Shown here: one piece after another, positions 14,960-63,417 of the stretch
Position numbering within the stretch: the first letter of the stretch is position 1
Layout: every line of letters starts with the position of its first letter
Assembly (NCBI GenBank): GCA_964409385.1
Contig: CAYPCY010000002.1
Span: forward strand, 79,941-143,940
Direction of reading: 5' to 3'
DNA from: an uncultured Methanosarcinales archaeon
Lineage (GTDB): Archaea > Nanobdellota > Nanobdellia > Woesearchaeales > CAYPCY01
DNA: 64,000 nt
The notes under the pieces: generated by a model
Told to the model about the DNA's origin: nothing
The model's database searches: none
The model's input: the letters and a program-made list of their open reading frames with translations, nothing else
Program-made: the position numbers and the translations under genes

Positions 14960-15171
14960 TTCCTTCTTGAGATGGCTTGTTTGTTTTAAATATTTTTCTT
15001 TAGAAAGAAGGCGAGCACGGGAGGATTTATAACGCAACCTTATCAGGTTGCATCGGGATATGAGGGTATAAGCTCTGCTTAACCCAACTAGAAACAAAAT
15101 AGTATTCTTGAGCGTGAGCGAAAAATACTTCGGTAAAAGGTAGACGAAAATACCTTGCAGAAAATGTATAA

Positions 15172-15379
15172 CGAGCACGGGAGGATTTGAACCCCCGACC
15201 TACAGCTCACTCCAAACCTGATAAGTTACAGAACTAAGATTCTGAACTTCAAAATGGTCAAACATTTTGTAAGGCTTGTAGGAGGCTGTCGTTCTATTTA
15301 CCTAACCATTATGCAGCTTTATGTTGTATGCTTTTGATCAAGCTTTTCGCAAAAGGTTGCCAGGCTAAACTACGTGCTC
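15172..15379 (-). tRNA. tRNA-Arg(CCU) interrupted by two introns (about 63 nt in the D-loop at 20/21 and about 71 nt at 37/38); mature length 74 nt
   Basis: Hand-folded on the minus strand. Acceptor GAGCACG/CGTGCTC is a perfect 7 bp. D-stem GTTT (exon 1) pairs with GAAC (exon 2). D-loop AGCCTGG|TA. Anticodon stem ACAGC/GCTGT is a perfect 5 bp. Loop CTCCTAA has U33 and A37. Variable loop AGGTC. T-arm GGGGG-TTCAAAT-CCTCC. Discriminator G. Exons approximately 15379-15360, 15296-15279 and 15207-15172. Confidence 0.6.
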
Positions 15380-15436
15380 GTGGGATTGAGAAGTTTTAAA
15401 TGCTTTAAATTATTTACTTTTAGTGGTTTAATTAAG

Positions 15437-16333
15437 ATGATTAAGGAAAAACCTGAGGATTTTGTTGTTGAGGAGGTTCCTTTAGAGTTTTCAAAGGAGG
15501 GAAATTATTTAATTTACAAACTTGTTAAGAATAATTTGTCTTTGCATAATTGTTTGGATATTATTACTAAACTAACTAGGATTTCTTCGAAGAATATCGG
15601 TTATGCGGGTATTAAGGATAAGAAGGCAGTCACTACTCAATACTTGAGTTTTCCTAAGAAAATAAGAGATTTAAAAGAAAGAAATTTCTCTTTAACTTTC
15701 ACAACTAGAAATGAGGATAGGCTTAATCTTGGTTGTTTGAAAGGTAATAAATTTAAAATTTTATTAAGAAATTATTTCGGTAAAATTAACAAGCAATCTT
15801 TAATTCCTAATTATTTTGATGAGCAGAGGTTTTCAGAACATAATTATGAGGTGGGTTTGGCAATATTAAGGAGGGATTTCAAAAAAGCATGTTCTTTAAT
15901 TGGTTTAAAACCTGAAAATAATAATTTTATTGGAGAGTTAAGAACCTTGCCTGATAGGATTTTAAGATTGTATATTCATTCTGTTCAATCTAAGATTTTT
16001 AATGATTTGTTGGCTGATAGTTTAAAATCTTCAAAGCATAAGCTTGTTAAGTATTCTCTTGGAGAGTTTGTATTTCCATATAATTTAAAGATGGAGAATT
16101 TTCAGATTCCTCTTCCTGGTTTTGATTATGATGGAGAACTACCTGAAAAACTTAAACCTAGAGATTTTATTATTAGGGAGATTCCTAGACTTTCTAGTGA
16201 GGGTGCTTCAAGAAATGCATTTTTACAAATTAAGAATTTCAAAACTTCTAAAAGAAAGGAGGGAACTTTGGTTTCTTTTGAATTGGGGAAGGGTAGTTAT
16301 GCTACTATTGTGTTAAAATCTTGTATAGAGTAA
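15437..16333 (+). CDS. truD: tRNA pseudouridine(13) synthase TruD
   Basis: KPEDFVVEEV and GYAGIKDKKAVTTQ TruD signatures. ATG at 15437 lies inside the longer GTG-started track ORF. Confidence 0.8.
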   Translation: MIKEKPEDFVVEEVPLEFSKEGNYLIYKLVKNNLSLHNCLDIITKLTRISSKNIGYAGIKDKKAVTTQYLSFPKKIRDLKERNFSLTFTTRNEDRLNLGCLKGNKFKILLRNYFGKINKQSLIPNYFDEQRFSEHNYEVGLAILRRDFKKACSLIGLKPENNNFIGELRTLPDRILRLYIHSVQSKIFNDLLADSLKSSKHKLVKYSLGEFVFPYNLKMENFQIPLPGFDYDGELPEKLKPRDFIIREIPRLSSEGASRNAFLQIKNFKTSKRKEGTLVSFELGKGSYATIVLKSCIE

Positions 16334-24409: not shown

Positions 24410-24450
24410 ATAGTAACTTTTTTAAATTGATTATTGTTCTAATTTTTAAT

Positions 24451-24525
24451 AGCGGGATGGGGCAGGCAGGAGTGCCCGTCGGGCTCATAACCCGGAGGTC
24501 GAAGGTTCAAATCCTTCTCCCGCTA
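24451..24525 (+). tRNA. Initiator tRNA-Met (CAU)
   Basis: Cloverleaf folded by hand. A1:U72 with discriminator A73. Three G-C pairs closing the anticodon stem (TCGGG/CCCGG). Loop CTCATAA. T-arm GAAGG-TTCAAAT-CCTTC. TATA-like tttaaatt about 25 nt upstream. Confidence 0.85.
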
Positions 24526-24635
24526 TCCTTTTCAAAGGATAGAACCCAAAGTATGTGTTTCCCTACGGTCAAGCACATTATTTTATAGTACTATCAAGTT
24601 GTTTTTGCGAGATATTTTTCATTTTATTCAAGCCC

Positions 24636-24950
24636 ATGAGAGAATTCGTTAATAAACTAAAAAAAAGGATTGAAAGTATTAAAGGAATACAACAATATAC
24701 TGATAATTACAATAATTGGTGTTATGGAACTTCTAAACAAAAGCATATTGTTCATCTACATCCTTACAACACACACGCGGATATTGAAATTAACAATCCT
24801 GAAATGTTCAGAAAATTTCTTAACAAGTTCGAGTCAAGACCTCATGAGTGGAATCCTCAAAACTGGTTGATTATTGATCTAATATCAAAAGAAAATTATA
24901 ATGCTGCTAAGGAAGTTATTAATGAAGTAGTTAAATTTATTAGTTCTTAA
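24636..24950 (+). CDS. Hypothetical protein
   Basis: ORF downstream of tRNAi-Met with start MREFVNKL; no motif recognised. Confidence 0.35.
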   Translation: MREFVNKLKKRIESIKGIQQYTDNYNNWCYGTSKQKHIVHLHPYNTHADIEINNPEMFRKFLNKFESRPHEWNPQNWLIIDLISKENYNAAKEVINEVVKFISS

Positions 24951-24964
24951 CATTTTATACTATT

Positions 24965-25576
24965 ATGATTGCAGGTGTAGATGAGGCAGGAAGAGGTTCT
25001 GTTATTGGTCCTTTAGTTATTGCTCTTGCTGAAATTCCAGAGTCTAAACTTTCTTTACTAACTGAAATAGGTGTTAAAGATTCTAAACTTTTGAAAAGAA
25101 ATAAACGAAAAGAAATTCTTGAGAAAGTGAATAATATTGCAAAATTCTACTATAAAATTTTTGATGCTCATGAAATAGTTAATTTCATGAAGTTAAAATC
25201 TTTGAATCAGTTAGAACTTGGGGGAATGGTTAATCTTTCTAATAGTGCAAGATCTGAGAAGATAATTATTGACTGTCCTTCAGCAGGTATTACTTCCTTC
25301 TCGAAAGATATTAATTGTTTATTGAATAATCCTAAAACTTTAATTATTGAGCATAAGGCTGATTTGAATCATTCAATAGTCGCGTTAGCTTCTATTGCTG
25401 CTAAAGAGAAAAGAGAAGATTTAATTGATGTTTTAAAAGAAAAATTTGGAGATTTTGGTAGTGGATATCCTGCAGATCCAAAAGCAAAAGCTTATTTAAC
25501 AGATAATCCTGAAATTAGTATTGTGAGAACTAACTGGAGTACTTGGAAGAATAGGGTCCAAACTAGATTAATATGA
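24965..25576 (+). CDS. rnhB: Ribonuclease HII
   Basis: MIAGVDEAGRGSVIGPLVIA catalytic motif; GVKDSKLL; GSGYP. Confidence 0.85.
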   Translation: MIAGVDEAGRGSVIGPLVIALAEIPESKLSLLTEIGVKDSKLLKRNKRKEILEKVNNIAKFYYKIFDAHEIVNFMKLKSLNQLELGGMVNLSNSARSEKIIIDCPSAGITSFSKDINCLLNNPKTLIIEHKADLNHSIVALASIAAKEKREDLIDVLKEKFGDFGSGYPADPKAKAYLTDNPEISIVRTNWSTWKNRVQTRLI

Positions 25577-26361
25577 ATATTTCAATAAATTATGAAGAGG
25601 GAATGATTAAGAAACTTAGAAAGCTAGGATTTAGAGATATTCCCAAAAAAACACCTTTTGAAAAATTAAGATTAGAAAAGAATTGTTTAGTAGTACTATA
25701 TAATACTGGAAAATTATTGCTTCAAGGTTCTGACTCTGGAGTATTGCACACTTTAAGTGATTTAAGAGGTAAGAAAAAACAAAATAAATTAGATTCTGAA
25801 GAGGAAATTATTGGTAGTGATGAAACTTTGAAGGGAGATACTTTTGGCGGATTAATAGTCAGTGGTTTTAAGGGAAATTCTAGAATTAGATCTAGACTTA
25901 TGTCTTTAGGAGTTAAGGATTCTAAACTACTTTCAGAACAACAAATTTTGAGGATTGCTGAAGCGTTAGAGAAAGAGTTTCCAAATAGAATTTGTATTAT
26001 TGAATTATCTCCGGAAAATTACAATCACAAAATGTCATATACTAGTGTTACAGGATTACTGAATCAAATGCATCAAGATGTTTATAATACTCTAAAGCCA
26101 GGAAAACATGTTGTTGATAAATATCCTGGTTGCAAGATTGGTGATGAAATTCTTGAGAAGGCAGAATCTAAATATTTAGAGGTTGCTGCCGCATCTATTG
26201 TTGCTAGAAAAAGAGCTTTAGATCAGTTTGATAGACTTAGTGAAAAAATCGGATTTACACTTCCTAAAGGAAGCACTCATGTTAGTGATGCTTTAAGAAA
26301 GTTAGAAATTAAAGGATTGAATAAAGCAAGATTTGTCAAGACCCATTTTAGGAATGTTTAA
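25573..26361 (+). CDS. rnhC: Ribonuclease HIII-like (TBP-like N-domain + type-2 RNase H domain)
   Basis: N-domain VVLYNTGKLLLQGSDSG resembles B. subtilis RnhC ITAYKSGKVLFQGKNAG. Catalytic IGSDETLKGDTFGGLIV matches the HIII signature IGSDEVGKGDYFGPLVV. The start overlaps the rnhB stop (ATGA). Confidence 0.7.
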   Translation: MNISINYEEGMIKKLRKLGFRDIPKKTPFEKLRLEKNCLVVLYNTGKLLLQGSDSGVLHTLSDLRGKKKQNKLDSEEEIIGSDETLKGDTFGGLIVSGFKGNSRIRSRLMSLGVKDSKLLSEQQILRIAEALEKEFPNRICIIELSPENYNHKMSYTSVTGLLNQMHQDVYNTLKPGKHVVDKYPGCKIGDEILEKAESKYLEVAAASIVARKRALDQFDRLSEKIGFTLPKGSTHVSDALRKLEIKGLNKARFVKTHFRNV

Positions 26362-37530: not shown

Positions 37531-37567
37531 GAAAGTATTAAATAATTAATTTCTCTTTTCTTTGATT

Positions 37568-38713
37568 ATGGATTTTAAAGACGATATTAATTCTGCCTGT
37601 AAGGCTTTAAAGATTAATGCAGTTTGTATAATTGGTGGTTCTTTTGCTAAAGGAACTAATTTAGATGATGATTTTGATATTGATTTCTTCCTAAAATTTT
37701 CTAAAAAATACAAGAATGAAGAAATTTCAAACTTGACAGAGAAAGTTCTAAAAAAATCTAAAATAAAATACTTAAGAATTCATGGTAGTAGAGATTATTT
37801 TCATTTTGAAAGAGAGACTAAGCATTATGAGGTAGTTCCAGTTTTTAATATTAAGAAACCTTCTGAAGCAATTAATATTACTGATGTTTCTCCATTACAT
37901 GTTGATTATGTTAAGAAAAAACTAAAAAAACCAGGTGATGTAAAACTTGTCAAGAGATTCTGCAAGGCTGGAAGAGTTTATGGAGCTGAATCTTATATTA
38001 ATGGATTTTCAGGTCATGTTATTGAATTATTAATAATTCATTATGGAAGTTTTAAGAATTTATTAAAGAAAGCTACTTCTTGGAATCCTAAAGTTATTAT
38101 TGATATTGAAAAAAAGGTTAAAAATCCATTAGTAAACTTGAATTCATCTAAAACAATAGGTCCTTTAATACTTCTTGATCCAGTTCAACCTGCAAGGAAT
38201 GCTGCTGCTTCATTGTCTTTGGAAAAATTCAATAAATTTAAGGATTTGGCTAATAATTATTTAAAGAAACCTTCTAACTCTTTTTTTAAGAAGAAAAAAT
38301 TAGATTTTTCTAAATTTAAGAAAAATAATCCTGCTTTGAAAATAGTTTTAAAACCTGTTGATTCTAGTAAGGACATTTCCGGAACTAAAGCATTCAAAGC
38401 ACTAAAATTTTTATTAAGATGTTTAGAAGAGAATAATTTTAAGATTAATTATGATTGGGAGTTTGATAAGAAGTTCATTATTTTTATTTCTGGAAAGTTA
38501 AAGTCTGATACTGTTATTGTTATTGGTCCACCCTTAAATAAAAAGGAGGATTGTAATAAATTTTTGAAGAAGAGAAAAAACACTTATAAAAAAAGTGGTA
38601 GGTTATTTTCTAAGGAGAAAGTCAAATTTAAAACTTTGAAATCTTGCTTAAATTTTTATTTGAAAGATTCTTATGTAACTTCTAGGATTAAGAGGGTTGA
38701 GAGTGTTATCTAG
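37568..38713 (+). CDS. cca: CCA-adding enzyme (class I archaeal nucleotidyltransferase)
   Basis: GGSFAKGTNLDDDFDIDFF resembles the archaeal Cca GSxARGTxL..SDIDxF Pol-beta NTase signature. At 382 aa it is on the short side. Confidence 0.55.
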   Translation: MDFKDDINSACKALKINAVCIIGGSFAKGTNLDDDFDIDFFLKFSKKYKNEEISNLTEKVLKKSKIKYLRIHGSRDYFHFERETKHYEVVPVFNIKKPSEAINITDVSPLHVDYVKKKLKKPGDVKLVKRFCKAGRVYGAESYINGFSGHVIELLIIHYGSFKNLLKKATSWNPKVIIDIEKKVKNPLVNLNSSKTIGPLILLDPVQPARNAAASLSLEKFNKFKDLANNYLKKPSNSFFKKKKLDFSKFKKNNPALKIVLKPVDSSKDISGTKAFKALKFLLRCLEENNFKINYDWEFDKKFIIFISGKLKSDTVIVIGPPLNKKEDCNKFLKKRKNTYKKSGRLFSKEKVKFKTLKSCLNFYLKDSYVTSRIKRVESVI

Positions 38714-62866: not shown

Positions 62867-63128
62867 TTATATTGTGTACAATAACAATATTTATAAAGAA
62901 AAAGTAGAACTAATATTTAAGACTTTCTATTTTTTTGTGTGTTTTAAGTTCAATATTAAAAAATCAAACACTATTCGTAGTGTTGACAATAATTCTCACT
63001 TATTTGTTAAAATTAGCAAAAGTTTTTAATAAGCTTTTTGTTTTTGAAAAAACATGCCACGATCGCATACTTAACACTTGACGTGTTGGTCGCGATAGTA
63101 GCATTTCATTCACTTGCGTTCATTTCAT

Positions 63129-63211
63129 GCCACGATCGCATAATCTGGTATTGCGCTGGTCTTGAAAACCAGTCCCGTATGGGATTCCCGGTTCAAATCC
63201 GGGTCGTGGCG
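63129..63211 (+). tRNA. tRNA-Ser (UGA)
   Basis: Acceptor GCCACGA/TCGTGGC, discriminator G. Anticodon arm CTGGT-CTTGAAA-ACCAG. Long variable arm TCCCGTATGGGATT. T-arm CCCGG-TTCAAAT-CCGGG. Confidence 0.8.
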
Positions 63212-63417
63212 CTCCTTTTCTTTCCGCCCGTCTTGTAAACCCTGTATTTTCTTTTGGCTTTCTTATCAGCTTTGGTTTTTCTTCTTTCTTTAGGATCTTC
63301 CATATTGTTTGTTTCAGGTTTAAATTATATAAATTCTCTCAAAAAACTGCAAAATCTTCACTAATAAGTCATAACATCCAATACTTTTTTAAAATTGTCT
63401 TGTTTTCTATAAGAGAA

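Follow-up and report, generated by a model that had tools for sequence, protein, structure and literature searches.

Read on the minus strand, positions 15379-15172 of the DNA analysed here (a stretch of 64,000 nucleotides, hereafter the window) very probably hold a functional tRNA-Arg(CCU) gene of a Woesearchaeota-like DPANN archaeon, the transcript of which would have two introns spliced out. The analysis supports a gene in three exons, with a predicted canonical intron at position 37/38 and a predicted non-canonical intron in the D-loop. The three tRNA pieces lie in the correct order on one strand and span 208 nt in total:

15360-15379, minus strand: exon 1, with the acceptor 5' strand G1-G7, U8, A9, the D-stem 5' strand GUUU and D-loop bases A14-G19 (AGCCUGG)
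15298-15359, minus strand: intron 1, in the D-loop after G19; 62 nt long if the bulge-helix-bulge rule is applied, with about 2 nt of uncertainty at the 3' boundary
15279-15297, minus strand: exon 2, with A20-U-A21, GAAC (D-stem 3' strand), G26, ACAGC (anticodon stem 5' strand) and loop bases C32-A37
15208-15278, minus strand: intron 2, 71 nt, between A37 and A38, with an hBHBh' motif; ARAGORN places an intron there
15172-15207, minus strand: exon 3, with A38, the anticodon stem 3' strand, the variable loop AGGUC, the T-arm, the acceptor 3' strand and discriminator G73

Joined together, exon 1 (GAGCACG-UA-GUUU-AGCCUGG), exon 2 ((AUA)-GAAC-G-ACAGC-CUCCUA, anticodon CCU at 15282-15280) and exon 3 (A-GCUGU-AGGUC-GGGGG-UUCAAAU-CCUCC-CGUGCUC-G, of which GGGGG-UUCAAAU-CCUCC is the T-arm) are folded by ARAGORN into a cloverleaf with a 7-bp acceptor stem, D-arm, anticodon arm and T-arm. 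The acceptor stem is made of seven Watson-Crick pairs out of seven and the anticodon stem of five out of five, while the T-stem includes one G.U pair. All of the hallmark bases can be read from the ARAGORN output, namely U8, A14, G18G19, A21, U33, A37, G53-U54-U55-C56, A58, C61 and the G15-C48 pair. CCA is not encoded at the 3' end of exon 3. As AGG accounts for 38% of the Arg codons in 18 window genes, a decoder with the anticodon CCU is in demand.

A preliminary description of this DNA had proposed a tRNA-Arg(CCU) gene with two introns, and all of the pieces that it described are indeed present on the minus strand, with ARAGORN calling the spliced product. It was right in seeking the acceptor 5' strand 208 nt upstream on the same strand, where all seven positions pair, and in placing an anticodon stem ACAGC/GCTGT around CTCCTA|A, with an insert of about 71 nt after position 37; the five pairs are complete and the insert is exactly 71 nt. 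Three other statements need adjusting. The T-arm and acceptor 3' strand were called perfect, which is true of the acceptor but not of the T-stem, given its G.U pair. The D-stem partner of GTTT was correctly identified as GAAC, and the insert between them gives an intron 1 of 62-64 nt, depending on the 3' cut. Finally, the spliced product does form a cloverleaf with anticodon CCU, but the length of 74 nt given for it becomes 73-75 nt, and 75 nt if the bulge-helix-bulge rule is followed.

Standard tRNA finders miss the gene because it is interrupted by two short introns. On the genomic sequence of the 64-kb window, ARAGORN reported only a tRNA-Met and a tRNA-Ser, with or without its intron option, and Rfam reported the same two only, seeing the T-arm fragment alone at the Arg locus. 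When intron 1 alone was taken out, ARAGORN gave tRNA-Arg(cct) together with a 71-nt intron, i(41,71), and spliced products of 73, 74 or 75 nt were all identified as tRNA-Arg(cct). The RF00005 model, for which the genomic sequence of this gene gave no match, scored exons 2 and 3 of two relatives described below (L002 and L004) at 38.1 and 33.9 bits, respectively, against a gathering score of 29.

By its predicted fold, intron 2 is a textbook bulge-helix-bulge intron at the canonical position, and it agrees with that motif in every point of geometry. The junction is flanked by the anticodon stem ACAGC/GCUGU. The central helix pairs CUCC (15284-15281) with GGAG (15213-15210) and makes use of anticodon loop bases, the 5' bulge is UA|C (15280, 15279 | 15278), the 3' bulge is UG|A (15209, 15208 | 15207), and the outer helix has 6 bp, AAGCCU (15277-15272) with AGGUUU (15219-15214). 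Within the intron there is a hairpin, AAC-UUAUCAG-GUU. No C/D-box motifs were seen by eye in either intron.

At intron 1 the window has a 3-4-3 bulge-helix-bulge geometry. Exon bases GCCU (15365-15362; G15-C16-C17-U17a) pair with AGGU (15303-15300) in the central helix, the bulges are GG|C (15361, 15360 | 15359) and AA|A (15299, 15298 | 15297), and an outer helix of 4 bp pairs AACC (15358-15355) with GGUU (15307-15304). If 15359-15298 is excised, with each cut placed two nucleotides inside its bulge, the D-loop reads AGCCUGGAUA and the tRNA is 75 nt long. The intron thus has what is looked for in a non-canonical case, that is, a motif at junctions outside 37/38 and an excision that restores the cloverleaf. 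Since a motif is found at both junctions, the absence of such structures, which the preliminary description had named as grounds for abandoning its proposal, does not apply. The exon-side helix of intron 1 is imperfect, in that A14 faces AUA and pairs with U only if one A is left unpaired, and for this reason the 3' cut is uncertain by 1-2 nt.

The forced intron 1 structure costs 3-5 kcal/mol above the minimum free energy in every haplotype (constrained fold), and the intron 1 region folded alone is as stable as shuffled sequence (z = -0.02); the whole precursor is more stable than its shuffles (z = -3.8). By our own estimate, the chance that eight specified pairing positions would be found at a fixed place in a random insert is about one in a thousand.

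In order to compare this locus with others, we retrieved it from other assemblies by way of the adjoining TruD and LPG-synthase genes. Seven contigs of further independent assemblies, from several samples, carry the intergenic region of the window unchanged from end to end (eight assemblies in total), and the arrangement is therefore neither chance nor an assembly artefact. Altogether there are five haplotypes from independent metagenomes: the window type, L001 together with L013, L002, L100 and L004-6. The L001 contig ends inside intron 2, and an inversion or split arrangement was considered for it; this was rejected because L013, which comes from the same sample and represents the same locus, overlaps it by 29 nt and continues in the same gene order. 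A scan of public collections with a 30-mer from exon 3 gave no genome contigs and, among metagenome contigs, only L002 again. In the DNA of TruD, L001 is 83% identical to the window and L002 and L004 are each 89% identical to it, and L001 is the outgroup in a tree of the flanking genes.

Over the five haplotypes the exons are identical at 74-75 of 75 positions, the sole change being A/G at position 57 (exon 1, 20/20; exon 2, 19/19; exon 3, 35-36/36). By comparison, the introns are identical at between 36 of 77 and 61 of 62 positions and the neighbouring genes at 79-90% (DNA). Because the exons are nearly identical while leader, introns and flanks diverge freely, strong purifying selection is indicated on the predicted mature tRNA. 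This bears on whether the locus might be a decaying pseudogene, in which two insertions disrupted a formerly intact tRNA-Arg gene that has since fallen out of use. Such a reading would fit the failure of ARAGORN and Rfam to call the genomic sequence, and the partial copy of the tRNA 3' end nearby (see below) is of a kind found at rearranged loci. It is very unlikely, given that the exons have been kept while the flanking genes differ by 10-21%, that both insertions carry splice motifs so placed that excision restores the cloverleaf, that the upstream TATA block is conserved and that AGG codons are frequent.

Intron 1 occupies the same site in all five haplotypes (window, L001, L002, L100 and L004). 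In L004 it carries an internal deletion, and in L002 and L100 it is 75 nt long with an unrelated interior. In the latter two it ends GGGU-ACA before UAGAAC, so that the strand pairing with GCCU and the 3-nt bulge are kept; an RGGU complementary to exon GCCU, three nucleotides before the 3' cut, is thus retained despite the unrelated interiors. Judged from these letters, the L002/L100 junction is a relaxed form of the motif, in which the central helix and 3' bulge are kept and the intron-side outer helix is weak. The first base of intron 1 varies among haplotypes (C, U or A), as expected because it is a bulged position. No significant likeness of intron 1 to intron 2, to the spacer described below or to the L002 intron was detected. 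Between the window and L001 (57-120) intron 1 is identical at 61 of 62 positions, with flanking genes at about 83% and an intron 2 interior that cannot be aligned. Intron 1 of these two is as conserved as the exons, yet the same site holds an unrelated interior in L002 and L100; either the intron is constrained in the window and L001 lineages or it was exchanged between them recently.

A further explanation is that only the anticodon intron is real, exon 1 being a chance or relic match and the 5' part of the tRNA being supplied by a split, trans-spliced gene. Split tRNAs are known in Nanoarchaeum, a DPANN relative (PMC4033280), and the ordinary stability of the intron 1 fold on its own would be in keeping with this. 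We regard it as barely credible here. A complete 20-nt 5' part is present in cis (7/7 acceptor positions, U8, A9, the D-stem strand and AGCCUGG), it is 100% conserved in five haplotypes, the junction has the 3-4-3 motif, and relatives keep the site with a different intron interior. Moreover, the halves of a split tRNA lie at separate loci, and the three exons of the tRNA-Arg gene follow each other in order within 208 nt.

Intron 2 is found only in the window type and in L001/L013. The L001/L013 copy is 74 nt long and shares the junction; in its outer helix a G.U pair is replaced by A-U, and its interior has diverged. In L002, L100 and L004-6 the intron is absent, and ACAGC-CUCCUAA-GCUGU runs uninterrupted.

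Two elements flanking the gene are relevant to its expression:

15393-15421, minus strand: upstream block of 29 nt, with TATA-like TTTAAA boxes at 15404-15409 (-25 to -30 from G1) and 15394-15400
15161-15164, minus strand: T-run UUUU, 8-11 nt past G73, read from the sequence

The upstream block is identical at 28-29 of 29 positions in all haplotypes, and the adjoining 13-nt leader matches L001 at 5-6 of 13; the block is a probable archaeal promoter and the T-run a probable transcription stop. A gene for a TruD/Pus7-family pseudouridine-13 synthase (15437-16333, plus strand) is divergent from the tRNA gene and starts 57 nt from the tRNA 5' end; nucleotide 13 of the tRNA is U. Because TTTAAA is palindromic, the promoter could be common to the divergent TruD gene, and the two genes probably use this one block. 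Among more distant TruD relatives (45-49% identity) no tRNA adjoins TruD, and the synteny is limited to the close haplotypes.

In the expression pathway that we propose for the tRNA-Arg(CCU) gene, a single precursor of about 210 nt would be transcribed from the TATA-like box some 27 nt upstream. EndA, the splicing endonuclease of archaea, would cut two nucleotides into each 3-nt bulge, removing the two bulge-helix-bulge introns (62 nt in the D-loop after G19 and 71 nt at 37/38), after which an RtcB-type ligase would join the three exons and the CCA-adding enzyme would finish the 75-nt tRNA. Here we infer the transcription, the nucleotide-exact cleavage sites and the enzymes involved. An endonuclease of relaxed specificity is plausible for the D-loop junction, especially in its L002-type form; the window does not prove the need for one, because its intron 1 already has the 3-4-3 geometry. 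Genes for EndA and RtcB were not found in the 64-kb window by Pfam searches of about 60 ORFs, and EndA was also not found there with an approximate M. jannaschii query. The gene for the CCA-adding enzyme (tRNA_NucTransf2) is at 37562-38713 on the plus strand, and none of the three window tRNA genes encodes CCA.

Archaeal markers in the window include GatD/GatE, CDC48, TFB, RpoE, exosome subunits, the proteasome alpha subunit and the CCA-adding enzyme, and the GC content is about 30%. The named TruD and TopA homologues are from Woesearchaeota, Nanoarchaeia or Pacearchaeota. Among species representatives, TopA reaches an identity of 54% at best, and the lineage is therefore one with no close reference genome. 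On the strength of these genes we assign the host to a Woesearchaeota-like marine DPANN archaeon without a close reference genome. Elsewhere in the window, two adjacent, overlapping ORFs (24965-25576 and 25573-26361, plus strand) both match RNase HII (Pfam PF01351) and look like tandem paralogues.

The preliminary description had also noted that the intron 2 hairpin recurs downstream in reverse complement, and this is correct: there is a perfect 11-nt inverted match between intron 2 (15215-25) and the downstream region (15039-49). The downstream hairpin is part of an insertion of 160 nt, the last stretch of which repeats the tRNA 3' end; the preliminary description had overlooked this. The insertion has two parts:

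15029-15171, minus strand: spacer 'D', 143 nt, between the tRNA 3' end and the copy of that end, with three hairpins plus one
15012-15028, minus strand: perfect 17-nt direct repeat of tRNA positions 57-73 (AAAUCCUCCCGUGCUCG)

The spacer hairpin GCAACC-UGAUAA-GGUUGC (15034-15051) corresponds in loop and stem to the reverse complement of the intron 2 hairpin (15215-15227). Positions 15012-28 equal 15172-88, for which 0.02 matches would be expected by chance, and the repeat is followed by the flank which directly follows the tRNA in relatives that lack the insertion. In L002, L100 and L004-6 the tRNA 3' end runs directly into this flank, CTTTCTTTTTAAAGAAAAATATTTAAAAC. The spacer is present in L013 at 82% identity, where the 17-nt repeat has decayed to ATTTCTCCCGTGCTCG, and it is absent from L002, L100 and L004. 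It can be seen that intron 2 and the 160-nt insertion co-occur: the window type and L001/L013 have both, and L002, L100 and L004-6 have neither. In addition, intron 2 of L001 has sequence in common with the spacer in each of the two orientations (scores 31 and 37; shuffle maximum 24). Over 27 nt its start matches the spacer end read in reverse complement, and its middle matches the spacer middle in direct orientation.

A direct repeat of a tRNA end bracketing inserted DNA, as found here, is the form taken by the borders of mobile elements. One explanation is that a single integration event left both intron 2 and the insertion, the attachment site having borne an intron-containing tRNA 3' part and nearly all of the element having been deleted later, so that the 143-nt spacer and the displaced 17-nt tRNA end are what is left of it. 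We consider this possible but doubtful. In its favour are the perfect 17-nt repeat around the 143-nt spacer, the joint presence or absence of intron 2 and insertion in each haplotype, the sequence shared in both orientations by L001 intron 2 and the spacer, a direct precedent in Caldiarchaeum (PMC3293823) and the tRNA-Ser of the window, 73 nt upstream of which a 17-nt copy of the 5' end is likewise present. However, no integrase or other element gene is left; the 143 nt between the repeats are without an ORF and the neighbours are housekeeping genes. The two differences from the intron-less haplotypes do not form one contiguous insertion, and scans of viral contigs with the repeat, the hairpin and the spacer gave no relevant match (for the tRNA end, hairpin and spacer 17-mer, either nothing or one chance match inside a coding region). 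With L001 as the outgroup, it is equally possible that both features are ancestral and were lost in L002 and L004. On account of the missing element gene, the non-contiguous differences and the outgroup position of L001, a mobile-element origin is one of two roughly equal possibilities.

The other is that the events were independent, in that spacer and repeat arose by local duplication or slippage and intron 2 is old and was precisely lost in some lineages, which we put forward tentatively as a fair contender short of an even chance. The spacer is 82% identical between window and L013, much like TruD at 83%, as would fit vertical descent from a common ancestor, and a deletion between the direct repeats of 17 nt would yield precisely the short haplotype. 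Against independent events, no source was found for the 143 nt, and the co-occurrence with intron 2 would have to be a coincidence. We did consider whether spacer D had arisen by tandem duplication of the flank downstream together with the beginning of the LPG-synthase gene and rejected this, as the global alignment was no better than shuffles; local alignment of the spacer with the downstream flank gave a weak match (2 of 500 shuffles).

The spacer contains a hairpin module, GAAGTATTTTTCG..TCAAGAATACTAT, and related stretches occur elsewhere in the window. Positions 24543-24588 and 24600-24647, downstream of tRNA-Met (24450-24528), resemble the spacer module (15084-15139) and intron 2 of L001, with a best score of 42 and a shuffle maximum of 30. 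Stems of the module vary by paired changes (AGTATT/AATACT, GTATG/CATAC and ATGTG/CACAT), and all copies found sit inside or beside tRNA genes; the module could be promoter-like or a small repeated element. A profile of the common module matched only its source copies in the window, and BLAST of both introns and the spacer gave no further copies there. Directly downstream of tRNA-Met, and overlapping the module, is an ORF of up to 131 aa (24555-24950, plus strand) with no Pfam match. A separate observation concerns tRNA-Ser(UGA) (63129-63212, plus strand), whose 5' end together with 3 leader bases (CATGCCACGATCGCATA) recurs as a perfect 17-nt copy 73 nt upstream, the repeat lying at 63053-63069 and 63126-63142; the TATA-like box precedes the first copy. 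It is the window's second direct repeat of a tRNA fragment and is likewise 17 nt long. That intron 2 and the insertion stem from a single mobile-element event, and that the hairpin module marks a family of small elements seeding bulge-helix-bulge introns in DPANN tRNA genes, is in our opinion improbable. If true, it would provide a traceable, DNA-level mechanism of archaeal tRNA intron gain beyond the single Caldiarchaeum case.

Archaeal tRNAs with several introns, and with introns in the D-loop (position 20/21), have been described before (PMC4090602, PMC4033280). Like the multi-intron genes of Thermoproteales, Nanoarchaeota and ARMAN that were found by SPLITS-type searches, the tRNA-Arg(CCU) gene combines an intron at 37/38 with one in the D-loop, both in bulge-helix-bulge motifs, and escapes standard tRNA finders. 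It differs in its host, a marine Woesearchaeota-like DPANN lineage, and in the D-loop site, which is 20/21 in the documented cases and here, from sequence alone, a putative cut after G19. In DPANN archaea an alpha4-type EndA with an L3 loop has been linked to more tRNA gene disruption (Kaneta et al., 2018, PMC5829648), and this would be the enzyme class expected to act on the tRNA-Arg(CCU) transcript, a link that we infer. The same study noted that incomplete DPANN tRNA sets point to undetected disrupted genes, as predicted for Woesearchaeota and Pacearchaeota (PMC5829648); the tRNA-Arg(CCU) gene is one such hidden gene.

For the insertion, the closest comparison is the tRNA-Thr(GGU) locus of Caldiarchaeum subterraneum, at which one- and two-intron forms coexist and for which intron gain through an intron-bearing attachment site has been proposed (Sugahara et al., 2012, PMC3293823). 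In the two-intron form, as here, a direct-repeat tRNA fragment brackets inserted DNA. The Caldiarchaeum insertion is 1.8 kb long, codes for a recombinase and lies on the 5' side, whereas ours is 143 nt long, geneless and on the 3' side. Furthermore, the Caldiarchaeum genomes are closely related, whereas the flanking genes of our haplotypes differ by 10-21% and so do not represent one population. At the borders of archaeal tRNA-targeting elements of the SSV1 and pNOB8 type, too, an intact tRNA gene and a repeat of its end enclose the inserted DNA, and here the repeat is perfect; the SSV1 repeat is 44 bp (PMC3293823), whereas here it is 17 nt, with only 143 nt inserted and no integrase.

The two-intron structure is already known in kind, and the comparative record of intron turnover is the more useful part of this work. 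The analysis brings to light an arginine tRNA that would count as absent in an automatic annotation, gaps of this sort having been noted in DPANN archaea (PMC5829648), and it adds a D-loop intron case for Woesearchaeota-like archaea. The five haplotypes amount to a small natural experiment on intron turnover, in which one intron was gained or lost and the other had its interior replaced in two of them. There is as yet no settled account of how archaea gain tRNA introns, and the mobile-element model of intron gain could be tested at this locus.
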